The notes: a model not told the origin generated them from the sequence alone. A stretch of 64,000 bases of DNA from Xanthobacteraceae bacterium (GCA_039808405.1 JBDHSY010000001.1:2061-66060), one strand, 5' to 3'; positions 7,385-55,589 are shown, counted from the first letter of the stretch. Numbers and translations: made by a program.

Positions 7385-7714
7385 TCAGGCGTTGGGAGGT
7401 CGCAACGCGGGGTCGACTGACCATCGCGCAAAGGCATCGGAAGCCGGAAAATGGAACTTGGATGACGCCCCATCCATCAAGGCGTGGGATGGACCGGAAA
7501 CAGGGGCAACAAGGCAATGGCCATGGCAACTGCCATGATGGTGCGGCACACCCCTATCGGAGTCGCCGGGTGACTGATCTGCGTCGCCATCGCTATGGAT
7601 TTCGCCCGAACAGTCGAGCGTTCCGGCGATTGAAAACTCGCTCGCATGCACCGTCGTCGACACAACTAGTGACGTCATCAGAAGGCAAAAAAGGAGCAGG
7701 CTCCGGCGCAGCAT
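7385..7714 (-). CDS. Small exported Cys/His-motif protein heading the czcCBA operon (family member 1 of 3 in this window)
   Basis: Internal ATG at 7714 of the 244-aa track ORF gives a 109-aa protein, MLRRSLLLFCLLMTSLVV..., with a signal peptide. It has an HHHGSCHGHC motif and a Pro-rich C-terminus (RPPNA). Confidence 0.6.
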   Translation of the reverse strand: MLRRSLLLFCLLMTSLVVSTTVHASEFSIAGTLDCSGEIHSDGDADQSPGDSDRGVPHHHGSCHGHCLVAPVSGPSHALMDGASSKFHFPASDAFARWSVDPALRPPNA

Positions 7715-7857
7715 GGCTATCCCATAGCCGTTGATACTCTTTCTGTCATCTGAAAGCCTGGACAGAAGCCGTGACGCCTTGCCCCGATTGACAAGTTTTG
7801 CGCTACAAGCCCAAGCTTTCTCCGAACGGTTGGGGCTGTTGCTGTTCCCGATCATTC

Positions 7858-8709
7858 TCATGCGCGGCCGACCTGTGCGAGTTCTCGCCGCGCATCGCGT
7901 ATGATCGACCAGGCAGATTGCAGGAACAGTGCTGCGACCACGAACGCCATAAGCAGATCGGGCCAGGTCGAGTCTAGCCACCAGACAAGGCCGGCCGCAG
8001 CGACCACCGCGAGATTTCCGATCGCATCGTTGCGCGAGAACAACCACACGGCGCGCACGTTGGCATCGCCCTTCCTGTGCGGGATCAGCACTACGGCTGC
8101 GAGAATGTTTACGACGCAAGCCACCAGCGCAAATCCAGCCATCAGCAGAGTTTGCGGCTCATATTCGGCAAACACGCGATAAACAGTGGAGCCGATGACG
8201 CCGAGGCCAAGCAGAGCCAGGAAAATGCCTTGTAGCAGCGCTGCCCGAGCACGGGCCACAAGACCCCATCCGATTGCAATTAGCCCCAGGAAAGAAATGA
8301 GACCATCGCCAATGAAGTCGAGAGCATCTGCCTGCAAGGCTTGAGATCCAGCCAGGAAACTCCCTGCAATCTGCACCACGCCATAGCCGGCGTTGAGCAG
8401 CACGACGATCCACAAGGCGCGCTTGTATGCGGGATTGACGTGCGTCAGATCGGGAATATGGCCATCATCCTCCCCCTCGGCAGTGCCGAGACGATCGAGT
8501 TGATAGCCAAGGCTCTGCACCGATGCCTCCACCTGTCGCAGATTCTTTGCCGGATCATTGATATCGAGGGTCATAACCTGGGTAGCGATCGACACGCTAA
8601 CATCCCGGACGCCTTCGACCTTACGCGCCGTGCCCTCGATCTTCGCGGCACAGGACGAACAATCCATGCCGGCGACGGCATAGCGGATTAGGTCGGCGTT
8701 GGCCCTCAT
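7858..8709 (-). CDS. HMA-domain / cation-diffusion-facilitator membrane-domain fusion transporter, without a C-terminal cytoplasmic domain
   Basis: The N-terminus carries GMDCSSCAAKIEG (CxxC HMA fold). Six predicted TM helices follow, with ADALDFIGD and SRNDAIGN motifs. The protein ends about 20 aa after the last TM. Confidence 0.8.
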   Translation of the reverse strand: MRANADLIRYAVAGMDCSSCAAKIEGTARKVEGVRDVSVSIATQVMTLDINDPAKNLRQVEASVQSLGYQLDRLGTAEGEDDGHIPDLTHVNPAYKRALWIVVLLNAGYGVVQIAGSFLAGSQALQADALDFIGDGLISFLGLIAIGWGLVARARAALLQGIFLALLGLGVIGSTVYRVFAEYEPQTLLMAGFALVACVVNILAAVVLIPHRKGDANVRAVWLFSRNDAIGNLAVVAAAGLVWWLDSTWPDLLMAFVVAALFLQSAWSIIRDARRELAQVGRA

Positions 8710-13231: not shown

Positions 13232-15598
13232 ATGGCCGAGTCGAACCAGAGCGATCATTCCGGGGACCACAGTCGTTGTGGAGGCCATGACAAGCATTCC
13301 GCCGGACTGGTTGTCGACCCGGTTTGCGGCATGACGGTCGATCCCGAAACCACCACGCATCACGCAAGCCATGCCGGCCATGACTACCATTTTTGCAGCG
13401 CCGGCTGCCGCGAGAAGTTCATCGCCGACCCGGAAAAATATCTGAACAAGTCGGCGGCCGACCGCGCCGTCGATGCTCCTCCGGGCACGATGTGGACCTG
13501 CCCGATGCATCCCGAAATCCGGCAGGATCATCCCGGCGCCTGCCCGATCTGCGGCATGGGGCTTGAGCCGGAAATGGTCAGCGCCGACACCGGACCGAGC
13601 GCCGAACTGACCGACATGTCGCGCCGTTTCTGGATTGGCCTCGTGCTGGCGATCCCGGTCTTCATCCTTGAAATGGGCGGGCATCTGTTCCCGGCGCTGC
13701 ATCATCTCGTGCCGATGAAGGTGTCGATCTGGATTCAATTCGCACTGGCGACGCCGGTCGTGCTGTGGGCGGGCTGGCCCTTCTTCGAGCGTGGCTGGGC
13801 ATCGCTCAAAACCCGCAATCTCAACATGTTCACGCTCATCGCGATGGGGACCGGGGTCGCATGGGCCTATAGCGTCGTCGCGACGCTGGCGCCCGGCATC
13901 TTCCCGGATGCCTTCCGCGCCGCCGACGGGACGGTTGCGGTCTATTTCGAGGCGGCCGCCGTCATCACCGTGCTCGTGTTACTGGGGCAGGTGCTGGAGC
14001 TGCGCGCCCGCGAGCGCACGTCGGGCGCGATCAAGGCGTTGCTGAACCTTGCCCCGAAAACCGCGCGACGTATCGCCGACGATGGCAGCGAAGCGGAAAT
14101 CCCACTGGAGGATGTGGCGGTGGGCGACCGGCTACGGGTGCGGCCGGGTGAAAAGGTGCCGGTCGACGGCGTCGTCGAGGACGGGCGCTCGGCGCTCGAT
14201 GAATCGATGGTGACGGGCGAATCCATGCCCGTCACCAAGTCGGATGGCGATACGGTGATCGGCGGCACCATGAACCAGAGCGGCGCCCTGGTCATCCGCG
14301 CCGACAAGGTCGGGCGCGATACGATGCTTTCGCGTATCGTCCAGATGGTCGCCGAGGCGCAGCGCTCCCGCGCGCCGATCCAGCGCATGGCCGATCAGGT
14401 CTCCGGCTGGTTCGTGCCGGTTGTCATCGGGGTCGCTGTCCTCGCCTTCGTCATCTGGGGCGTCTGGGGTCCAGAGCCGCGCTTTGCCCATGGGCTGATC
14501 GCGGCGGTATCGGTGCTGATCATCGCTTGCCCCTGCGCATTGGGACTGGCGACACCGATGTCGATCATGGTCGGCGTCGGGCGCGGCGCAGGGCTTGGCG
14601 TCCTCATCAAGAACGCCGAGGCGCTGGAGCATATGGAGAAGGTCGATACGCTGGTCGTCGACAAGACCGGCACGCTGACCGAAGGCAAGCCCGCCGTCAC
14701 CCGGATCATCGCGGCGGACGGATATGTCGAAGCGGAAATTCTGCGAATCGCCGCCGGTGTGGAGCGCGCATCGGAGCATCCGCTGGCGCTGGCGATCGTT
14801 GACGCGGCGACGGGCCGGAACATCGAAATTCCGCCCGTCAGCGACTTTGACTCGCCGACCGGCAAGGGTGCCCTGGGGGTGATCGAGGGCAAGCGCGTCA
14901 CGCTCGGCAATGCGCGTTTTCTGGCGGAATCGGGAATCGACACCGCGCCGCTTGCCGCCGAGGCCGATGCGCTTCGCAGCGATGGCGCGACCGCGATCTT
15001 CATGGGGCTGGATAATCGGGCCGTTGGTATTTTCGCCATCGCCGATCCGATCAAGCCGACGACGCCCGAGGCGCTGGCCGCCCTCCGCGCCGACGGCATC
15101 AAGGTGGTGATGCTGACTGGCGACAATCGGACGACCGCTGAGGCGGTCGCGCGCCAACTCGGCATAGATGCGGTCGAGGCTGATGTCTTGCCCGACCAGA
15201 AAGCAGATGTCGTCGTGCGGCTGAAGCAGGAAGGCCGTGTCGTCGCGATGGCGGGCGACGGGGTCAATGATGCCCCGGCATTGGCGGCCGCCGATGTCGG
15301 CATCGCGATGGGGCACGGCACCGATGTCGCCATGGAAAGCGCGGGCGTGACGCTACTCAAGGGCGATCTCAACGGCATCGTCCGCGCCCGCCAGCTCAGC
15401 GAGGCGACGATGGCCAACATTCGCCAGAACCTGTTCTTCGCCTTCGTCTACAACGCGGCAGGCGTGCCGATCGCTGCTGGATTGCTCTATCCGTTCTTCG
15501 GCATCCTGCTCTCGCCGATGATCGCCGCGGCGGCGATGGCCTTGTCGTCGGTGAGCGTCGTCGCCAACGCACTGCGTCTCAACCGGGTGAAGCTGTGA
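13232..15598 (+). CDS. Copper-translocating P1B-1 ATPase with an N-terminal YHS/TRASH-like domain and a CPMHP..CPICGM domain instead of a classical HMA
   Basis: [25 protein letters not shown] motifs. N-terminus reads DPVCGMTVD...[12 protein letters not shown] and [26 protein letters not shown]. Start chosen at ATG 13232 (AAGGAG 8 nt upstream) rather than the track GTG at 13211. Confidence 0.9.
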
Positions 15599-46162: not shown

Positions 46163-46483
46163 ATGGCCACCATCGCAAACCTCACCCAGAAGCAGGACGG
46201 CAGCCTGGAAGGCACGCTCGCCACCCTCAACGTCACCGCCCAGATCGCGGTGATCCAGAACACCCGCAAGACGAAGGAAAACGAGCCCGACTACCGGATC
46301 ATCAGCCGCAAGAACGGCTTCGAGCTGGGCGCTGGCTGGAACCGCTTCTCCCAGAACACCGGCGCGGAATATATCTCGGTTTCGCTGTCGGCTCCCGAAT
46401 TCGGCACCATCTACGGCAACGTCGCCCCGGCCCCTGGCGATGACCCGATGAAGAAGGTCATCATCTGGAACCCGCCGAGCTGA
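46163..46483 (+). CDS. DUF736-family protein
   Basis: MATIANLTQKQDGSLEGTL...PDYRI...GAGW... It is a paralogue of the gene at 52516. Confidence 0.8.
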   Translation: MATIANLTQKQDGSLEGTLATLNVTAQIAVIQNTRKTKENEPDYRIISRKNGFELGAGWNRFSQNTGAEYISVSLSAPEFGTIYGNVAPAPGDDPMKKVIIWNPPS

Positions 46484-46556: not shown

Positions 46557-46851
46557 ATGAGCCGCTACGCCATCACCCTGCGAACCGACGCCGCGACCGA
46601 CGACAACGCCGTCATCGGCTACGATCCGCCACTTCGCACATATTTCATCCAGGGGTTCAAAGATCCGAAGACCGAACAGCCGGTTCTCTGGCTCGGCACC
46701 CACCTTGTTGATGACGCTGCTCGCCGCTCTTGATGTCCGCGGCTACCAGCTTGACGGCCTCACCGCCGCCATCAAGGCCGACATGGGCGCGGAGGCCACC
46801 CGTCCTTCGTCACCAAGTCCTGTCGAGCGATACGGCTGGCCGTTCCGATAA
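46557..46851 (+). pseudogene. Small conserved gene apparently split into two frames (58-aa ORF 46557-46733 plus 46-aa ORF 46711-46851 in the +1 frame)
   Basis: ORF1 reads MSRYAITLRTDAATDDNAVIGYDPPLRTYFIQGF..WLGTHLVDDAARRS*. The +1 frame is open throughout and continues ..LMTLLAALDVRGYQLDGLTAAIKADMG... Both ORFs fall below the track cutoff. Read together they give a single protein of about 100 aa. Confidence 0.35.
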
Positions 46852-46975: not shown

Positions 46976-47249
46976 ACTGCACCAAGCCTGCAAGTCTCCG
47001 TTCAACGCTGGTGGAAACGCCAGCGCGTGCCCGAGAGGCCAGGGTTCGGCAACGACGGTCAGCTACGGCAGGACAGGCAGCTCCTGTTCGCCGGGAACCA
47101 CCCCGCTCTTTGAGGCTCATTCCTTGGTCCGGCGCATGGCCTGACGCCATCAACCCGTAAAGGGTCCGCTTACGCTGCGCGTGCGGCCTTCAGGCTGCGC
47201 CTGCGCGGTGATCGCGGCCATGCGCCTGACACTTCGGGAGCCTGTCGAG

Positions 47250-47264
47250 CGGGGATGGTCCCCG
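47250..47264 (+). promoter_or_regulatory. Second copy of the CGGGGATGGTCCCCG hairpin, 21 nt upstream of ATG 47286
   Basis: Exact 15-mer shared with 46126-46140. Confidence 0.45.
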
Positions 47265-47285
47265 CCTCCGAGACAGGAGCCGAAA

Positions 47286-47459
47286 ATGTCCAACTCGCTG
47301 AAAACCGCCCAAGCCTATGCCTGGAGCCTCGCGCGCAGCCTCATGGTCTGCATCATCGTATTCCGCGCCGAAAACGGCATGTTCGGCGCCATGCCGGCCA
47401 CCGAATGGGACGGCGATCCCGACCTCGTCCTCGCGGAACTCGACCCTTTCGGGCGGTGA
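47286..47459 (+). CDS. Small hypothetical protein (57 aa)
   Basis: Internal ATG 47286 with AGGAG upstream gives MSNSLKTAQAYAWSL...ATEWDGDPDLVLAELDPFGR. Confidence 0.5.
   Translation: MSNSLKTAQAYAWSLARSLMVCIIVFRAENGMFGAMPATEWDGDPDLVLAELDPFGR
47396..47421. repeat. Right arm of the 26-bp inverted repeat (inside the small CDS)
   Basis: See 46950-46975. Confidence 0.85.
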
Positions 47460-47491
47460 GCCCGAAAGGCGATCAGCCAGTGCGTGCAGCG

Positions 47492-47722
47492 CTACGCACT
47501 GGCGCCATCCTCGTCATAATCGGCGATCAGGTCGACGGGTTTTACCCCTAACGCCGTGGCAAGATGGAAAAGCGTCACCACTGTCGGATTGCGCCGACCG
47601 CGTTCGAGATCACTGACATATTGCTGCGTGAAACCGGAAACCTCGGCGAAACGCTCTTGGGTGACGCCTTGCTCACGCCTCAATCTGGCAAAGTTCAATC
47701 CAACAAGGCGACGCATATCCAT
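47492..47722 (-). CDS. XRE/Cro-C1-family HTH regulator (QseC-like position)
   Basis: 76 aa: LRREQGVTQERFAEVSGFTQQYVSDLERGRRNPTVVTLFHLATALGV. It is divergent from the DUF2285-like gene across an AT-richer 157-bp gap. Confidence 0.85.
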   Translation of the reverse strand: MDMRRLVGLNFARLRREQGVTQERFAEVSGFTQQYVSDLERGRRNPTVVTLFHLATALGVKPVDLIADYDEDGASA

Positions 47723-47826
47723 GCGTGCGACGCTGGACGATACACACTATCGGGTTTATCTCTTATAAGATGTATTGGCTGATTCAGTGGTCAGCACTGT
47801 CGTGCGCTTTTCATGCTTTAGGACTA

Positions 47827-47839
47827 TGCAAGCATTGCA
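47827..47839. promoter_or_regulatory. Palindrome TGCAA-gca-TTGCA in the divergent regulatory gap
   Basis: Seen directly in the sequence. An operator role is a guess. Confidence 0.25.
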
Positions 47840-47879
47840 GAGCCTTGAGAATTTGGACGTACGAGCCAGGGAGATATTC

Positions 47880-48158
47880 ATGAAACCCCCACCGCTCGAT
47901 CCTGCCGTTGCTGACACAGCGCCGGACGCAGCCTTCCTTACGCCTTATGATGAAGAGCATCTGATCACCTATTTGCGCTTGCTCGACGCCCAGAGTGATG
48001 ATGCGGGGTGGGAAGAAGTGGCACGCGTCGTTCTGCACATTGACCCGGAACTGGAACCCGCGCGCGCCCATAAAGCCTGGACAACGCATCTGGCCCGCGC
48101 GCAATGGATGGCCAAATCTGGATATAAACATCTGCTGCGCGGCGGCCCGCCAAACTGA
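47880..48158 (+). CDS. Small DUF2285-like protein (92 aa), QseM-like antiactivator candidate
   Basis: ATG 47880 (GGGAGA 6 nt upstream). HLITYLRLLDAQSDDAGWEEVA...LARAQWMAKSGYKHLL parallels the C-terminus of the downstream split gene (LILSIRLLDAERDGATERQMA...AHRLLDGGYLQIL). Confidence 0.65.
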   Translation: MKPPPLDPAVADTAPDAAFLTPYDEEHLITYLRLLDAQSDDAGWEEVARVVLHIDPELEPARAHKAWTTHLARAQWMAKSGYKHLLRGGPPN

Positions 48159-48303
48159 ACGGACGTGACCTGAGCGACGCTCAGCTATCACCATTCGTGC
48201 TGCCGGGATAACCGGGCGGTGGCTAGTCAAACACACGCACTACGCGAATCTTCCAATGTTGTGCCGCGGCGCATGAACCGCGGCCCTCTTGGGAGGTGTC
48301 GCC

Positions 48304-49084
48304 ATGCACAAGGCAGATTGGCGTTCTCCGGCAGAATATCGGTCCTTTCAACATTATGACCGCGCCGGATTCGCTTGGGAAATCGTTCGTCGCAATCGGG
48401 ATTACTGCCGAGAATATAGAGAAATACTTCGGACGAAGCCGCCAGACCCGCTTCAGATCGAGAGTTTCGTCAAGCGCTGGGGGTTGCGATTTCGGCTCTG
48501 ACCCGGACATCGCCTACGAAGGACAACCTGTCTTCTGGCTTCCCGAGGTTCTTCCCTCGGTTCTGCATATCCGCTCCGTAACGCCGGGCATGACGTCCTG
48601 GCCGCTCGATCCGGCGGCGCTGATGTCGGCGCCAAACGCCGTGCGGAGCCGAGACGGAGACCATGTCATCGTTGCGCCCGATGCGACGCACCGCGTCTGG
48701 ACCGATGGCTATTCCAAGGGCGTCATGGCGATTGTCCTGCCGCTGGATTTGCTGTTCGCCGACCGGGCGGCCGCCGCGATCCGCTTCTGGAATTCTCTCG
48801 TCGGCAATCGGGCGGGCCCGGAGCCGAAACCGCTCACGCCCTATGCGCGCGGCCAGCTCATCCTCTCTATCCGTCTGCTGGACGCCGAGCGAGATGGCGC
48901 CACCGAGCGTCAGATGGCCGAATATATCCTGAAGGAAAGTGCGCCGACGCGGCGTGACTGGCTGGCGACCGAGCATCGCTCGCGCCTTCGCCGCCTCTTG
49001 AAGAAGGCGCACAGGCTGCTGGACGGCGGCTATCTGCAAATATTGTGTCCGCCACCACGTCGCCCGCGACGCAAGGCAAAATAA
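48304..49084 (+). CDS. FseA-like transcriptional activator (DUF6499-like N-terminus plus DUF2285-like C-terminus) encoded in two frames: 48304-48492 (frame 1) joined to 48494-49084 (+1 frame)
   Basis: Frame 1 reads MHKADWRSPAEYRSFQHYDRAGFAWEIVRRNRDY...VKRWGLRF-RL*. The +1 frame continues GSDPDIAYEGQPVFWLPEV...GYLQIL. The junction at TTT_CGG matches the unsplit layout ..RWGLRF..DP....W.. that I recall for this family. Confidence 0.7.
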
Positions 49085-49199
49085 TTACACCCCTGAAAAG
49101 TCGACTCTCCCCCCACGCTGATCCGCTTCGCCAATCTGCACTCCGATGCGCTGACAGCCACTGCTGTCCGCCGTGACCCATTCGGAAGGCAGGACTGAG

Positions 49200-49487
49200 A
49201 TGCACCCTGATACGGATTTCGACTCGCTGCCCGGTTCGAAATATCTGCGGACGCCTGACGCGGCCCAGCTCCTCGGACTTTCCCCGAGAACACTCGAAAA
49301 GCATCGCACCTTCGGCACCGGGCCCACCTATCGCAAGCTCGGGGGCAGGATCGTCTATCGCGTGGATGACCTGCGCCAATGGGCCGATCGCGGCGTGCGC
49401 CAGTCCACCTCCGACCCAGGCGCGGGCACGGTGTTCGCCGCCAGACCTCTGACGGCCGAAGAAATAGCCGTAAGCGACGGTCGCTGA
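49200..49487 (+). CDS. Excisionase/AlpA-type HTH protein (RdfS-like candidate)
   Basis: Internal ATG 49200. YLRTPDAAQLLGLSPRTLEKHRTFGTGPTYRKLGGRIVYRVDDLRQWA is an HTH_17-like fold. Confidence 0.75.
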   Translation: MHPDTDFDSLPGSKYLRTPDAAQLLGLSPRTLEKHRTFGTGPTYRKLGGRIVYRVDDLRQWADRGVRQSTSDPGAGTVFAARPLTAEEIAVSDGR

Positions 49488-49493
49488 ACCATC

Positions 49494-50606
49494 ATGGCCG
49501 GCAATCATCGACCACTGGGCCAGAGCGAACGCGCGCGCCTCGATCCGTTTGAAGCGCTGTCCGGAAACGTGCCGCCGCGCGACCAGCGCGACCTCATGGA
49601 GCGCCCCTTCTTCTCGCTGGCGAAGGCCCGGCGCATCGCGCCGATCCTTTATAAATCCGGCGATACCGAAGTGCAGGTCTATGCCGTGCCCGAACATGGT
49701 CTGGCGACCATTTGGGATGCCGATGTCCTGATCTGGGCCGCGAGCCAGCTTCTCGCCGCCGACGATCGCGGACTGCCGACCTCCCGGTTTTTCCGCTTCA
49801 CGCCCTATCAACTGCTCACCTCCATCGGCCGGGGAACGGGCGCGCGCAACTACCACCTTCTCAAGGGCGCCCTGACACGGCTGCAATCGACGGTCGTGCG
49901 CACGACCATTCGGCACGGTGAGCATTGGCGACGCCAGCAATTCTCCTGGATCAACGAATGGGAGGAACTGGCGACACGGACCGGCCGGATCGAGGGCATG
50001 GAATTCGTTCTCCCCGACTGGTTCTACCATGGCGTCCTCGATCGCCGCCTCGTGCTGGCGATCGATCCAGGCTATTTCCGGCTCACCGGCGGCATTGAGC
50101 GCTGGCTTTATCGGATCGCGCGCAAACATGCCGGACGACAGCCCAATGGCTGGCGTTTCGAGCTGCGCCACCTTCACGCCAAAAGCGCCAGCCAATCACG
50201 CTTCTCCGATTTTGCACTGCACATCCGCGCCATTGTGCGGAGCCAATCGCTCCCTGGCTACGTCCTGGAGTTGGTGCCAGGAACGGGTTCGGAGACCCTC
50301 CTGGTGATGCGGCCGCGCATTATTGAGATCAGCGCAGGGCCTGTGGATAACTTTCCGCGTCATAAGCGCCGTATCGGTACTTCGGACGCAATGGCTATCG
50401 GTACTTCGAACGCAGTCCTATCCGTACTTCGGACGCACGCATCCCAGCTAAACCTTTGGCCTTCCAGCACAAAACTGGACTCTAAAGACTCTAAATCAGA
50501 ATCTAAAGAAGTAGTAGAAGCGCGCGGAGCTGGGGATAGATCGTCCAACGCCTCGCTTGGCGGCCGCTCCGACATCTCCCGAACTCGACAGGAGCGCCGC
50601 TCATGA
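49494..50606 (+). CDS. repA: Replication initiator protein A (RPA family)
   Basis: RDQRDLMERPFFSLAKARR...VYAVPEHGLATIWDADVLIWAASQL. 370 aa. Confidence 0.85.
   Translation: MAGNHRPLGQSERARLDPFEALSGNVPPRDQRDLMERPFFSLAKARRIAPILYKSGDTEVQVYAVPEHGLATIWDADVLIWAASQLLAADDRGLPTSRFFRFTPYQLLTSIGRGTGARNYHLLKGALTRLQSTVVRTTIRHGEHWRRQQFSWINEWEELATRTGRIEGMEFVLPDWFYHGVLDRRLVLAIDPGYFRLTGGIERWLYRIARKHAGRQPNGWRFELRHLHAKSASQSRFSDFALHIRAIVRSQSLPGYVLELVPGTGSETLLVMRPRIIEISAGPVDNFPRHKRRIGTSDAMAIGTSNAVLSVLRTHASQLNLWPSSTKLDSKDSKSESKEVVEARGAGDRSSNASLGGRSDISRTRQERRS
50373..50438 (+). repeat. Three iteron-like 19-bp direct repeats (period 23-24 bp) inside the 3' end of repA
   Basis: TATCGGTACTTCGGACGCA (50373), TATCGGTACTTCGAACGCA (50397), TATCCGTACTTCGGACGCA (50420). 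An AT-rich CTCTAAAGA/CTCTAAATCA/ATCTAAAGA patch follows at about 50470-50510. Confidence 0.75.
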
Positions 50607-51241
50607 TCGTCGCGCTCCTCAATCAGAAGGGCGGCGTCGGCAAGACCACGCTCGCGCTGCACCTTGCTGGACAATGGGCGAGGCAAGGGCGCCGTGTCCT
50701 GCTGATCGACGCCGATCCTCAAGGGTCCGCGCTCGACTGGTCGCAGCAACGCGCCGCCGAAGGACTGCCTCGGCTGTTCAGCGTGATCGGCCTCGCCCGC
50801 GACACCCTGCACATCGAAGCGCCGGAGCTGGCGCGCGGCATGGATCATGTGGTCATCGACGGGCCGCCGCGTGTCGCCACCTTGCTCCGCTCGGCGCTGT
50901 TCGCCTGCGACCTCGCGCTGATCCCGGTGCAGCCATCGCCGCTCGACGGATGGGCGTCGGCCGAGATGCTGAAGCTGATCGACCAGGCGCGCATCTTCAA
51001 ACCCGCGATCGGCGCGCGCTTCCTGCTCAACCGCTACCCCACGCGCACCCTGATCGCCCGCGCCACCGCCGAGAGCCTTGCCGAACACGACCCGCCGCTG
51101 CTGGCGCAACATGTCGGTCAGCGCGTGGTGTTCGCCGACGCCATGCAAACCGGGCGGCTGGTGTCGGAGGTCGATCCCGAAAGCACGGCAGCGCATGAGA
51201 TCACCGCGCTGGCCGCCGAGATCGAGGCGATCAGATCATGA
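50603..51241 (+). CDS. parA: ParA/Soj-type partition ATPase
   Basis: MIVALLNQKGGVGKTTLALHLA (deviant Walker A), LIDADPQGS. Confidence 0.9.
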   Translation: MIVALLNQKGGVGKTTLALHLAGQWARQGRRVLLIDADPQGSALDWSQQRAAEGLPRLFSVIGLARDTLHIEAPELARGMDHVVIDGPPRVATLLRSALFACDLALIPVQPSPLDGWASAEMLKLIDQARIFKPAIGARFLLNRYPTRTLIARATAESLAEHDPPLLAQHVGQRVVFADAMQTGRLVSEVDPESTAAHEITALAAEIEAIRS

Positions 51242-51492
51242 CGACGCGCAAGCTCAGAACAGGGTTCACGTCCCGGCCCGGTGCGGCCGAAGCGTGGATT
51301 GCGGGACCGCAGGACGCCGCTGCACCAACCGCGCCGCCGCCGGTCAACAGCGCCAGATTGACGATCGACGTGACGCCTCAGTTGCGGCGACGCCTCAAAC
51401 TCGCGGCGCTCCAGCGCGGCGTGTCGCTCGCCGACATGCTGCGCGAGCTGCTGCATCGTGAGTATCCCGACGATGCGGAAAACGGATCATGA
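51238..51492 (+). CDS. Ribbon-helix-helix partition/centromere-binding protein candidate
   Basis: 84 aa. The C-terminal RLTIDVTPQLRRRLKLAALQRGVSLADMLRELL is an RHH pattern. It is coupled to parA. Confidence 0.65.
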   Translation: MTTRKLRTGFTSRPGAAEAWIAGPQDAAAPTAPPPVNSARLTIDVTPQLRRRLKLAALQRGVSLADMLRELLHREYPDDAENGS

Positions 51493-51968
51493 GCGCCGCC
51501 CGCCACGCCGGTCGCACGCGCGTCGATCTGCTGTGGATCGAGCGCCGCATCGAGCGCTGGATACGCTTCGGTCGCCTGGTCGAGGATCAGATCCTCGACC
51601 GCCAGCGCCGCCGCGTCGCCTTCGCACAGGACAGCGTGTTCGCCTACGTCCGTTGGGCATCCAATGACTTCGGCACGCTGGTGTCGCGCATCGACATCCT
51701 GCGCGCCGTCAATCCGGGCGAACCCTGGCAGACCGTGCCGGGCGTCACGCCCGGCGGCGAGATTCTGCTGCGCGTCAATGGTTGGCCCAAGGTCCAGCGG
51801 GTGTTCGAGGCGATCGACGCCGTGGATGCGCTGAACATCGATCCCGCCGACGCCGCGCCCGACCATTGGCGACACGTCCATAACCGTCTCGCAGCGCAGG
51901 AAAGCCCGCGCCCCTACACGCTGGAGCGTCATCGCGCCTGGCTCGCCCGCAAGGGAGCATTGCAATGA
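51489..51968 (+). CDS. DUF2840-like conserved protein
   Basis: 159 aa, translationally coupled on both sides. It sits in the position seen upstream of traF in related elements (from memory). Confidence 0.6.
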   Translation: MSAARHAGRTRVDLLWIERRIERWIRFGRLVEDQILDRQRRRVAFAQDSVFAYVRWASNDFGTLVSRIDILRAVNPGEPWQTVPGVTPGGEILLRVNGWPKVQRVFEAIDAVDALNIDPADAAPDHWRHVHNRLAAQESPRPYTLERHRAWLARKGALQ

Positions 51969-52480
51969 GATTTCGCTGGGGAACGCTGGTGACGATGGTC
52001 GCGGCAGTCAATGTCATCGCAATTTCGGTGTGGATCAATCCGCCGCCGAAGCTGATCTGGAACGCCTCGGCCAGCGTGCCGATCGGCTTCTACACCGTCC
52101 GTCCGTCGAACAATCTGCGCGTCGGCGATCTCGCCGTCGTGACGCCGCCCGACGATGTCGCCGCGTTCCTTTCGGCGGGCGGTTATCTGCCCCTCGGCGT
52201 GCCGCTGATCAAACCGGTCGCCGCGCTGCCGGGCCAGATGGTGTGCCGCACCGGCATCGCCATCACCATCGACGGAAAGCCGTTCGGCGCTGCACGCGAA
52301 CGGGATCGGCTGCATCGGCCGTTGCCCGTCTGGAAAGGGTGCCGTGTCGTCGCCGCCGACGAGATTTTCTTCATGAACGCCGACCGCCTCGACAGCCTAG
52401 ACGGCCGCTATTTCGGGCCGCTGCCCGCATCGTCCGTGATCGGTCGCGCGACGCCGCTGCGCACGCGCGCATCATTCTGA
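51965..52480 (+). CDS. traF: S26-family conjugal transfer signal peptidase TraF
   Basis: N-terminal TM, ...NASASVPIGFY...GDLAVV...DSLDGRYFGPLP. Confidence 0.8.
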   Translation: MRFRWGTLVTMVAAVNVIAISVWINPPPKLIWNASASVPIGFYTVRPSNNLRVGDLAVVTPPDDVAAFLSAGGYLPLGVPLIKPVAALPGQMVCRTGIAITIDGKPFGAARERDRLHRPLPVWKGCRVVAADEIFFMNADRLDSLDGRYFGPLPASSVIGRATPLRTRASF

Positions 52481-52515
52481 TCGCTTTCCCCCTGCCAGCA
52501 CAAAGGAGATTGGCA

Positions 52516-52851
52516 ATGTACGCAGGCGCCTTCAAACCCACCGAGGACGGCTATTCAGGCCGCATCCGGATGTTCGGGATCGACGAGGCGATCATCATCG
52601 TCCCCGCCGAACCGAATGACGCCGAGAACGCGCCCGACTACCGGGTTCATCTCGACGAAGACGCCGGCCCGGAGATCGGCGCGGGATGGAAGCGCGTCGG
52701 CGAAAAGGCCGGCGACTATGTGTCGATCGAGATCGACAGCGCGATTTTCACCGGCCCGCCGTTGCGCGCCAATCTGTTCCGCGCCGATGACGAGGGCACG
52801 ACGTTCAACCTGTCGTGGAACCGACCGCGGCCGCGCGAAGACCGGAGCTGA
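52516..52851 (+). CDS. DUF736-family protein (second copy)
   Basis: Internal ATG 52516 (AAAGGAG upstream) gives MYAGAFKPTEDGYSGRI...PDYRV...GAGW... Confidence 0.78.
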   Translation: MYAGAFKPTEDGYSGRIRMFGIDEAIIIVPAEPNDAENAPDYRVHLDEDAGPEIGAGWKRVGEKAGDYVSIEIDSAIFTGPPLRANLFRADDEGTTFNLSWNRPRPREDRS

Positions 52852-53581: not shown

Positions 53582-53834
53582 CGCGGGCTGGCGTGCCCCG
53601 TCGCGTCATAGGGTGCAAACGGATACAGACGGTCGGAAGCTCTTGGGATTTGGGTAGAAGCAGGGAGGCATGGCCAGATAAAAGGACCGCCGTCTCGCGG
53701 GGTCCATGTGGTTGGTTGGGCTTGCTTTTCTTGTCGGCTCCCAAAGTGGGCCTGCCAGCCGTGCTTTCAGAAAACAGCATGAAATCAATCGGCGCGCGTA
53801 TGGCGCCCGCTATTCGGCCCGGAAGCCGCGCCCG

Positions 53835-55589
53835 ATGAGCGCCCGCGACGATGATTTCCGGGTGCGCCCAGGAAGGCCTCGCGATAGCGCCAAGCAAGAC
53901 AAGCAGGCCAAGTCGTTCGTCGGTCAGGTGATGCGCGCCGCCAGGAAGGCCGGACACACAGGACGCGGCTTCGGACCTCGCCGGCAAGGCGGCGGAGGAT
54001 CGCGCTTTGGTCGCGGCAATGCCGCAGGCTCCAGTCGCGCTCGCCGGCCCGACATGCGCCGCGTCATCGTCAAGATGCGGGTCGTGCGCCATGCGGGCAC
54101 AAAGTTCCGGGCGGCGCCGATCGCCCGGCATGTGGCTTATCTGGAGCGCGAGGGCGTCACCCGCGATGGCGCGCCTGCCCAGATGTTTGATGCCGGCACC
54201 GACCGGGTCGATGGCGAAGCCTTCGCCGCACGGTGCGAAGACGACCGGCATCATTTCCGGTTCATCGTCTCGCCCGAGGACGCCGGCGAAATGCAGGACC
54301 TGCGCGCCTTCACCCGCGAACTGATGGCCGACGCCCAGCGCGACCTCGGCACATCGCTCGACTGGGTGGCCGTCGATCACTGGAACACGGATAATCCCCA
54401 TATCCATGTGCTGGTGCGCGGCCGCGCCGATGACGGCGGCGACCTCGTCATCAGCCGCAATTATGTGCGCGAGGGATTCCGGGGGCGAGCGGAGGATCGC
54501 GTCACGCTCGAACTCGGCCCGCGCAGCGAGCGCGAGATCCAGGCAGCGTTACGCAAGGATGTCGAGGCCGAGCGCTGGACCGGTCTGGACCGAACCTTGC
54601 GCAACATCGCCGACCATCACGGCGGCATCATCGATCTTCGCCCCGAAACCGGTTCTCACGATGCGGAAGAACGACGCCTGCTGGTCGGTCGGGCGCAGAA
54701 GCTCGAACGCCTCGGTCTTGCCGATCCTATCGGTCCCGCGTCATGGACGCTGAAGCCCGGCGGCGAAGAAACCTTACGCGCCCTGTCGATCCGCGGCGAC
54801 ATCATCAAGACCATGCACGCGGCGATGTCGCGAGGCGTCGGCACGCCAGATATTGCATCGTTCGCGATCCATGACGAACAGGTCGGCGATCCCGTGCTTG
54901 GCCGCCTGGTCGAACGCGGCCTGCATGACGAGCTGGCGGGCACAGCCTATGCCGTCGTCGAAGGTGTGGACGGGCGGACCCATCATCTGCGGTTCAGCGA
55001 TATCGACATGACGGGCGACGCAAGGCCGGGGGCGATCGTCGAACTGCGGTCCTGGGAGGACCACAAGGGCCAGCAACGCCATTCGCTCGCCACCCGTTCC
55101 GACCTCTCGCTGTACCGGCAGGTCACGGCCGACGGTGCGACATGGCTCGATCGCCATCTGATCGCGCGCGATCCGCCCATGCTTGGCGGCGGGTTTGGCG
55201 CGTCGGTGTCCGATGCGCTCGACGCACGGGCCGATCATCTGGTCGATGAAGGTCTGGCGCGGCGGCAAGGGCAGCGCATCATTTTCGCCCGTAATCTGAT
55301 CGGCACGCTGAAGCAGCGCGAACTGGACGGCGCCATCGCCCGGATCGCGGCCGAGACCGGATTGGCGCACAGGCCTTCGGCTCCGGGCGATCATATCGCT
55401 GGGACCTACCGCCAGCGCATCACGCTCGCGTCGGGCCGGTTCGCGATGATGGATGACGGACTGGGGTTCCAGCTCGTGCCCTGGCGGCCGGCGCTCGATC
55501 CGCAGCTTGGCAAGCACATCACCGGGACAATGGCGCCCGGTGGCGGGGTGGACTGGAGTTTTGGTAAGCAGCGTGGTCTGGGACTGTAG
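53835..55589 (+). CDS. Conjugative relaxase (VirD2-like relaxase domain plus DUF3363-like C-terminus)
   Basis: Internal ATG 53835. HVAYLEREG..., HFRFIVSPED, DHWNTDNPHIHVLVRG (His triad). Confidence 0.85.
   Translation: MSARDDDFRVRPGRPRDSAKQDKQAKSFVGQVMRAARKAGHTGRGFGPRRQGGGGSRFGRGNAAGSSRARRPDMRRVIVKMRVVRHAGTKFRAAPIARHVAYLEREGVTRDGAPAQMFDAGTDRVDGEAFAARCEDDRHHFRFIVSPEDAGEMQDLRAFTRELMADAQRDLGTSLDWVAVDHWNTDNPHIHVLVRGRADDGGDLVISRNYVREGFRGRAEDRVTLELGPRSEREIQAALRKDVEAERWTGLDRTLRNIADHHGGIIDLRPETGSHDAEERRLLVGRAQKLERLGLADPIGPASWTLKPGGEETLRALSIRGDIIKTMHAAMSRGVGTPDIASFAIHDEQVGDPVLGRLVERGLHDELAGTAYAVVEGVDGRTHHLRFSDIDMTGDARPGAIVELRSWEDHKGQQRHSLATRSDLSLYRQVTADGATWLDRHLIARDPPMLGGGFGASVSDALDARADHLVDEGLARRQGQRIIFARNLIGTLKQRELDGAIARIAAETGLAHRPSAPGDHIAGTYRQRITLASGRFAMMDDGLGFQLVPWRPALDPQLGKHITGTMAPGGGVDWSFGKQRGLGL

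Follow-up and report, generated by a model that had tools for sequence, protein, structure and literature searches.

Gene content and organization of the locus

We examined a 64-kb stretch of DNA from a Xanthobacteraceae bacterium (hereafter the window) and, within it, a module at positions 47492-49487 that we regard, with a probability of about 0.85, as the transfer control of an integrative conjugative element (ICE) of the type of ICEMlSymR7A from Mesorhizobium japonicum R7A. A gene for an XRE-type regulator (qseC-like) lies on the minus strand and is separated by a divergent control region from plus-strand genes for a 92-residue protein (qseM-like), an activator split between two overlapping open reading frames (ORFs; fseA-like) and a helix-turn-helix (HTH) protein (rdfS-like), behind which repA and the transfer genes follow (Table 1). 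The five genes that an initial annotation of this DNA had proposed are all found where it had placed them in the ORF map and by Pfam, and Pfam scans assign their products to the DUF2285, DUF6499, HTH_XRE and HTH_17 families that it had named (PF10074, formerly DUF2285, is now RovC_DNA-bd in Pfam). Its identification of the XRE protein as a QseC type, of the split activator as FseA and of the HTH gene ahead of repA and the transfer genes as an excisionase type likewise agrees with the comparisons described below. A GGGAG Shine-Dalgarno sequence is found 7 nt before the qseM-like start, and no Shine-Dalgarno-like motif is found in the 20 nt before the qseC-like ATG. No Rfam family matched inside the module, and NCBIfam, which has no model for QseM, FseA or RdfS, matched the relaxase alone.

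A putative QseM-type antiactivator

The 92-residue protein is closely related to QseM of ICEMlSymR7A, sharing 40 of 77 residues (52%) with the nuclear magnetic resonance structure of that protein (PDB 7UQT; 1.3e-19). Mutagenesis has shown that QseM residues R28, D31, R68, W71 and G76-Y77 are needed for antiactivation (Jowsey et al. 2023), and these correspond to R33, D36, R73, W76 and G81-Y82 in the 92-residue protein. Among 27 homologues, R33, D36, R73, W76 and G81 are invariant and Y82 is nearly so, and both M1 and the length of 92 residues are kept. The protein has a net charge of -5, versus +12 for the DUF2285 part of the activator, the same contrast that has been published for QseM and FseA, QseM being without DNA binding. 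The motif that the initial annotation saw in both the small protein and the C-terminus of the activator reflects a real relationship (37% identity over 70 residues, E = 5e-9), and its suggestion of an antiactivator that mimics the activator domain fits both the charges and the conserved antiactivation residues. Together, these features support a QseM-type antiactivator that would bind FseA.

A different role for this protein would be that of a second DNA-binding regulator, either a repressor or a co-activator, acting on the promoters of the module; indeed, DUF2285 binds DNA in FseA and in RovC, and Pfam names the family as a DNA-binding domain. Its charge is, however, opposite to that of the FseA domain and like that of QseM, it is more than half identical to QseM with every antiactivation residue conserved, and by Pfam it has no DUF6499 partner domain, all of which make a DNA-binding role very unlikely.

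A C-protein-type regulator and its candidate operators

The best relatives of the XRE protein in the PDB are C.AhdI (1.9e-9), C.BclI (1.6e-8) and QseC (9XZ9; 4.3e-8). The likeness to the controllers of type II restriction-modification systems (C.AhdI, C.BclI and C.Esp1396I) extends to the arrangement of the locus, a small dimeric-type HTH protein adjoining a short region with paired dyads between divergent promoters, which is also the arrangement described for QseC. The restriction-modification C proteins target an endonuclease gene, whereas the target of the XRE protein here would be an antiactivator gene. Neither a toxin-antitoxin nor a restriction-modification role was retained for the XRE gene, as no such partner genes are nearby.

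When the control region was aligned with those of related elements, a 36-bp block at 47740-47775, close to the qseC-like start, was found to be conserved in seven elements, the rest of the intergenic sequence having diverged. The block contains two ATA-N5-TAT dyads, at 47740-47750 and 47765-47775, as well as a sigma-70-like promoter facing qseM, with a -35 element TACACA (47741-47746), a 17-nt spacer and a -10 element TATAAG (47764-47769). These dyads are plausible candidates for QseC operators over PqseM and PqseC, much like the 35-bp operators of C proteins. The C-box of C proteins is GACT/AGTC, from which the candidate dyads differ. It was phylogenetic footprinting that picked out the block; a generic repeat finder picked out no operators in the 157-bp gap.

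The regulator upstream of qseM is not the same everywhere. In a large clade, a co-directional gene for an 87-residue HTH protein (MITGRQVRAARALLNWKQ...) stands directly upstream of qseM in place of the divergent XRE gene, for example at locus L026 (9681-9944; a Methylocella metagenome-assembled genome) and at many other loci, although picking the longest ORF upstream of qseM yields many spurious ORFs in GC-rich loci. Because of this swap, the top-level regulator of the module is, judged by gene content, interchangeable.

Two small plus-strand ORFs lie beside the qseC-like gene, at 46557-46733 (58 residues) and 47286-47459 (57 residues). Neither has a Pfam match, and in the closest elements both are conserved and called as genes. 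The 57-residue one is convergent with the qseC-like gene and ends in a perfect hairpin (47445-47469), so that transcription from there would be antisense to qseC, a position reminiscent of the antisense-qseC promoter that ICEMlSymR7A carries. The hairpin has no U-tract and is a possible bidirectional transcription stop; it was missed by the terminator scan because it has no T-run.

A split FseA-type activator with a conserved +1 frameshift site

The two activator ORFs, fused as join(48304..48492, 48494..49084), encode a chain of 259 residues that matches PF20109 (2.3e-21) and PF10074 (2.2e-22) together, the same domain pair as in FseA. They are connected at UGG GGG UUG CGA UUU CGG CUC UGA (48478-48501, plus strand), where, as we propose, tRNA-Phe would move from UUU (48490-48492) to UUC and base 48493 would be skipped; the unshifted product of ORF1 ends in WGLRFRL*. 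The published fseA site consists of a UUUC slippery sequence, on which tRNA-Phe shifts by +1, after an SD-like (Shine-Dalgarno-like) UGGGGG that codes for part of WGL (Ramsay & Ronson 2015), and the site in the window is identical to it in both UUUC and UGGGGG. The survey of related genomes covered the best 80 loci, and the frames of the two domains could be compared at the 65 loci where both were found; at 62 of these the DUF2285 part is offset by +1 relative to ORF1, and the sequence UGGGGG-NNN-CGA-UUU-CGN is nearly invariant across the related loci.

Overlapping ORFs in different frames resemble the product of a frameshift mutation, and gene callers annotate the two halves as separate proteins, as would be expected if the activator were a pseudogene and the module a non-functional remnant. 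A chance mutation is ruled out, however, since 62 of 65 loci, spread over many families, have both the same +1 offset and the site. Both halves, moreover, match their Pfam models strongly, and the published fseA needs exactly such a frameshift, one shared by ~61% of 4709 published FseA homologues. A decayed activator is thus exceedingly improbable.

A motif and a partner residue of FseA that Jowsey et al. (2023) showed to matter are also recognizable. The alpha2 motif of the DUF6499 domain reads AWEIVRRN (residues 24-31) versus AWEFLRRN in FseA, differing in its two central hydrophobic residues, and the partner Asp in helix H1 of DUF2285 is kept as the D of IRLLDAE. The activator is only weakly similar to RovC (6XZ5; E = 0.011), the activator of type VI secretion in Yersinia; a fold relationship between FseA and RovC has been published, DUF2285 being a helix-turn-helix variant that binds DNA in both. 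RovC, by contrast, comes from a single ORF read without a frameshift, lacks a partner of the QseM type and is encoded outside conjugative elements. A role of the module in type VI secretion was rejected, as no such partner genes lie nearby.

An RdfS-type gene heads the replication and transfer genes

The HTH_17 protein matches RdfS (PDB 8DGL; 5e-11) with 44% identity over 64 residues, which supports its being an excisionase-type directionality factor. RdfS of R7A is an excisionase and also a regulator of conjugation, and in the window the rdfS-like gene is upstream of traF and rlxS on the same strand. The ORF coordinates from repA through traF give four stop/start overlaps of 4 nt each, a tight and presumably translational coupling, and after traF the plus strand continues with DUF736, an SLT lytic transglycosylase gene, rlxS, traG and trbB to trbE. 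The output of the rdfS operon likely runs on through DUF736, SLT and rlxS.

The module is widespread and its gene order conserved

The 92-residue protein falls into at least 992 clusters at 90% identity, nearly all of exactly 92 residues, and is encoded in at least 569 species-representative genomes. In most of the best 80 loci the order is kept as qseM, fseA-N (+400), fseA-C (+620), rdfS (+1300), repA, (parA), DUF2840, traF, relaxase and traG, and Pfam-annotated contexts agree; the order thus holds across alphaproteobacterial elements, for which the initial annotation had suggested a survey. The hosts include Sphingomonadales, Bradyrhizobium, Mesorhizobium, Rhizobium, Reyranella, Methylocella, Acetobacter, Komagataeibacter, Gluconacetobacter and many metagenome-assembled genomes, and the synteny spans Sphingomonadales, Hyphomicrobiales, Acetobacteraceae and others. 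Hephaestia, Sphingopyxis granuli TFA and Sandaracinobacteroides sayramensis have the same layout, and the element of the last is the closest relative among the matches listed, with 92.7% DNA identity over 20 kb. In S. granuli TFA a nearly identical module is part of the 4.68-Mb chromosome, beside copper, mercury and arsenic islands. Megablast of the module against plasmids gave short matches of 75-79% to the repA/parA part and no annotated equivalent.

These relatives also bear on whether the element is instead an integrated or free plasmid-like replicon, in which the main output would be replication and partition by repA and parA and the HTH_17 protein a transcription factor. The repA and parA genes directly follow the HTH_17 gene with overlapping codons, the window contains no integrase, and rdfS homologues are found on plasmids too; in the S. 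granuli paper the corresponding stretch is interpreted as an integrated plasmid or as an ICE. The traF, SLT, rlxS, traG and trb genes continue on the same strand, however, the S. granuli relative is chromosomal and that strain showed no free plasmids, and since RdfS of R7A is both excisionase and conjugation regulator the two readings overlap. We regard a primarily replicative module as improbable.

No recognizable quorum-sensing genes accompany the module

The initial annotation held that no luxR or luxI gene is present in the 64 kb, and this was borne out. Neither an autoinducer-binding nor an acyl-homoserine-lactone (AHL)-synthase domain turned up when the large non-overlapped ORFs of the window, and also the leftover ORFs, were scanned with Pfam, and tblastn with six LuxR/LuxI seeds yielded no match in it at a threshold as loose as E <= 1. 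Two of these seeds, TraR and TraI, are 100% identical to the annotated traR and traI; annotated plasmid genes supplied the remaining four. Among the 80 survey loci, luxR/luxI were found within 10 kb at one, L072, which is without fseA. At this locus, in Bradyrhizobium sp. 190, a LuxR-type gene and a LuxI fragment (~13760-14710) lie near an orphan qseM, with no fseA or rdfS nearby.

The annotation's implication that a layout without quorum sensing is unusual was not upheld. Numerous ICEs carry QseM and FseA without recognizable quorum-sensing genes (Ramsay & Ronson 2015), such a layout is the norm among the sampled relatives, and the window falls exactly into this class of proteobacterial qseM/fseA ICEs with no difference in kind. 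In R7A, QseM has TraR-AHL as a second target, and this dual-target antiactivation is a feature that the window does not share, no TraR-type gene being found in it; TraR-AHL binding has been suggested to be a later addition rather than a defining feature of QseM (Ramsay & Ronson 2015). A switch described in the title of Ramsay et al. (2013) as 'A widely conserved molecular switch...' thus has, as far as gene surveys indicate, a form free of quorum sensing that is much the more frequent and occurs in hundreds of alphaproteobacterial species, and its identification here is correct but ordinary. In the literature searched, no paper that mentions DUF2285 reports experiments on a quorum-sensing-free member, and all mechanistic work that we found is on the quorum-sensing-linked Mesorhizobium element.

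The apparent lack of quorum sensing could be an effect of the window's edges if the true input were a signal system outside the 64 kb that controls fseA or qseC in trans, be it a LuxR/LuxI pair of the host or of the element or another sensor. The window includes neither of the element's ends (there is no integrase and no tRNA), TraR drives fseA in R7A, and at L072 luxR/luxI are 4 kb from the orphan qseM. In R7A, however, traR and traI directly adjoin fseA and qseM, whereas here no such gene is found in the 47 kb upstream or the 15 kb downstream, and in ~60 syntenic relatives no luxR/luxI were found within 10 kb. The literature, moreover, states that many such ICEs are without recognizable quorum-sensing genes, and the sequence upstream of fseA holds a clade-specific palindrome rather than a recognized tra box. 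An input from outside the window is therefore unlikely.

Candidate control sequences of fseA and rdfS

Comparison of the spacers between qseM and fseA revealed an inverted repeat, which in sphingomonad elements takes the form GCYATCACC-N3-GGTGATRGC (for example at L093, ~2805-2825, and L092, ~800-822). The arms are separated by ~12 nt, not 3, in the window and in L001 and L008 (the Sphingopyxis granuli type and Sandaracinobacteroides sayramensis), and the corresponding position in other clades is occupied by TTGC-N7-GCAA-N6-TTGC. This conservation suggests that the palindrome at 48184-48212 is a clade-specific operator of an fseA promoter.

The leader of fseA is predicted to fold so that its Shine-Dalgarno sequence is paired. 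The fold has a minimum free energy of -31.9 kcal/mol (z = -3.1), with 2 of 200 shuffled sequences equally stable, and none of 40 shuffles paired the Shine-Dalgarno sequence as strongly. Across loci, the pairing of the fseA Shine-Dalgarno sequence is 0.75 versus 0.67 in shuffles (p = 0.004), and its mean pairing probability is 0.80 versus 0.57 for qseM (p = 0.0015); in both comparisons the loci are non-independent and the effect is modest. The layout of anti-Shine-Dalgarno sequence, hairpin and Shine-Dalgarno sequence recurs in many other clades with different sequences, and the qseM leader is predicted to be far more open. The fseA leader may thus be an extra translational brake on the activator.

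Upstream of rdfS, the published FseA box consists of two inverted hexamers spaced by 15/16 bp and directly adjoins the -35 element of the rdfS promoter. Other clades have clear inverted arms ~16 bp apart followed by TCCCC, such as TGGCGAT-N16-ATCACCA, in agreement with this description. The sphingomonad clade instead conserves AAATAATTA-N13-GTCGAC-N2-TCCCC, which is not an inverted repeat, and the TCTCCCCCC and CTTCGCCAATCTG that follow align with the 'box-TCCCC ... CGCCACCGTG' layout of the other clades. A hairpin in the rdfS leader has a counterpart of different sequence at the same place in other clades. The whole leader fold is not unusually stable (z = -0.4), and RNAalifold gave no consensus on the raw MAFFT alignment of 29 rdfS leaders because the hairpins are out of register in it; for these reasons a conserved RNA element is not put forward. 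Scans of 47100-49600 for promoter and terminator consensus sequences gave just one promoter-like site, on the minus strand inside fseA, and two terminator-like sites, also on the minus strand.

Table 1. Features of the module and the genes that follow it, in window coordinates.
Feature	Position	Strand	Description and evidence
Hairpin	47445-47469		Perfect 10-bp stem (CCTTTCGGGC ggtga GCCCGAAAGG) between the convergent 57-aa ORF and the XRE 3' end
qseC-like gene	47492-47722	-	76-aa XRE / C-protein-type HTH regulator; HTH_3 at 2.6e-15, also HTH_31 (Pfam)
Divergent control region	47723-47879		Between qseC-like gene and qseM; 157 bp; GC 47.8% vs 63.9% for whole window
qseM-like gene	47880-48158	+	Antiactivator, 92 aa, net charge -5; sole Pfam match PF10074 at 4e-08
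Inverted repeat between qseM and fseA	48184-48192 and 48205-48212		GCTATCACC and GGGATAAC; spacer comparison
Predicted structured fseA leader	48243-48303	+	AAUCUUCC (48247-48254) pairs with Shine-Dalgarno GGGAGG (48291-48296), enclosing hairpin 48263-48284
fseA ORF1 (msi172 equivalent)	48304-48501	+	65 aa, DUF6499; PF20109 (formerly DUF6499) at 8e-23
fseA ORF2 (msi171 equivalent)	48494-49084	+	+1 frame; middle domain and basic DUF2285 DNA-binding domain; PF10074 at 1.3e-22
Presumed rdfS promoter region	49079-49137		AAATAATTA (49079-49087, over fseA stop), 13 nt, GTCGAC (49100-49105), TCTCCCCCC, CTTCGCCAATCTG; 57 distinct upstream regions
rdfS leader hairpin	49150-49171	+	GCTGACAGC cact GCTGTCCGC
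rdfS-like gene	49200-49487	+	95-aa winged-HTH excisionase / recombination directionality factor, first of output operon; HTH_17 at 5e-10
repA	49494-50606	+	RPA family (Pfam)
parA	50603-51241	+	Pfam
RHH gene	51238-51492	+	Ribbon-helix-helix (Pfam)
DUF2840 gene	51489-51968	+	Pfam
traF	51965-52480	+	TraF-type S26 peptidase (Pfam)
rlxS	53706-55589	+	RlxS-type relaxase; RlxS model 4.9e-169 (NCBIfam), below curated cut-off

Model for transfer control

Reading binding events, promoters, transcripts and phenotypes across from these homologies, we propose the following model. The QseC-like regulator and the acidic QseM-like protein would be transcribed divergently from the AT-rich region with its 36-bp promoter/operator block, and QseM would take the place of FseA's own DUF2285 domain, sequestering FseA via DUF6499 and keeping it inactive. 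FseA itself would be made rarely, as it would require the ribosome to slip by +1 on CGA-UUU-CGG after UGGGGG, and the leader helix is predicted to mask its ribosome-binding site as well. When QseC shuts qseM off, free FseA would activate the promoter before rdfS, turning on rdfS-repA-parA-RHH-DUF2840-traF, probably as far as rlxS, and so bring about excision, maintenance of the excised circle and conjugation. There would be no AHL input, and the decision would presumably be made by the QseC/QseM toggle together with further control of fseA transcription.

Several points weigh against this interpretation of the module as the transfer control of an ICE. The assignment to an ICE rather than a plasmid rests on relatives, because no integrase, att site or tRNA gene is found in the window. 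A canonical FseA box is not recognizable upstream of rdfS in the sphingomonad clade either by comparison of 57 distinct upstream regions or by a repeat scan; a diverged FseA site is plausible because the DNA-binding domain of FseA is just ~30-35% identical to those of other clades. The qseM and fseA genes are co-directional, and the terminator scan detected no intrinsic terminator between them. If they are co-transcribed, repression of qseM would therefore lower fseA as well, and a simple toggle would require a separate, so far hypothetical fseA promoter. Finally, heritable bistability in ICEMlSymR7A required both QseC and QseC2, and no second QseC-like sequence was found within the 64 kb, where the XRE gene is single copy and the 57- and 58-residue ORFs beside it have no Pfam match. 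The initial annotation had called the switch bistable: the homologous parts are indeed present, and bistability itself, with QseC2 not found, would be an extrapolation from R7A.

A more speculative extension, to which we would give limited credence, is that elements without quorum sensing have a self-contained QseC/QseM/FseA circuit. In such a circuit fseA would have its own promoter under the 48184-48212 palindrome, FseA would be held down in series by the leader that sequesters its Shine-Dalgarno sequence, by the +1 frameshift and by titration by QseM, and the FseA of sphingomonads would read the non-palindromic AAATAATTA-N13-GTCGAC. If this were true, a single C-protein would be enough to set the donor fraction.

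Comparison with known systems

ICEMlSymR7A and the window share the same four families, QseC, QseM, FseA and RdfS, with the C-protein gene divergent from qseM, an acidic DUF2285-only antiactivator with the R/D/R/W/GY residues, a DUF6499-DUF2285 activator with a +1 shift on UUUC after UGGGGG, and rdfS at the head of the traF...rlxS genes. The window differs from it in having no traR, traI or QseC2. In the window, qseM is upstream of and co-directional with fseA, whereas in R7A it converges on traI2-fseA, and fseA directly adjoins rdfS on its upstream side, where R7A has it at a separate locus. Unlike in R7A, repA, parA, RHH and DUF2840 stand between rdfS and traF, and no inverted repeat of the canonical FseA box is seen. 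QseM and the DUF2285 domain of FseA are 37% identical in the window and ~18% identical in R7A.

The proposed logic is also that of TraM and TraR on Agrobacterium Ti plasmids, where a small protein binds directly to the transfer activator and thereby inactivates it, the default state being off. The proteins are unrelated to QseM and FseA, however, and TraM acts on a LuxR-type AHL receptor, a kind of protein not found in the window.

Significance and neighboring genes

In the output of gene callers, fseA appears as two 'hypothetical' ORFs and qseM as a type VI secretion system DNA-binding protein. Resistance genes on the element cover copper, mercury, arsenic and RND efflux, and once the module is correctly recognized, this metal-resistance island can be seen as a conjugative element that is potentially mobile and under tight repression. 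What triggers transfer without an AHL system is a genuine but generic question, for which the window is no more tractable than hundreds of equivalent loci; as a practical matter, Sphingopyxis granuli TFA, with its nearly identical module, has published growth experiments.

The dense metal-resistance cargo at 1653-45010, which precedes the transfer genes, includes two RND/HlyD/OEP efflux systems, one with a CusF domain, a CDF/HMA protein, MerR, CopA/CopB/CopD and a P-type ATPase, and further a MerA-like reductase with an HMA protein, an ECF sigma factor and ArsC-Acr3-ArsH. Interspersed in the same region are ICE backbone genes, namely ArdC, ParB-like, DUF6878, DUF6915, DUF7007, a Sno/SNF2-like helicase, a Toprim gene and YAcAr. 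Two DUF736 paralogues (26% identity, E = 3e-7) bracket the regulatory and replication block, one upstream of qseC (46163-46483) and one after traF (~52510-52851), and both positions are conserved in relatives. The CDF/HMA efflux gene (7385-8709, minus strand) seems to be split: 7858-8709 encodes HMA and the C-terminal two-thirds of the Cation_efflux profile, and an overlapping 244-residue ORF (7385-8119) has no Pfam match, possibly as a result of a frameshift or start-site problem.

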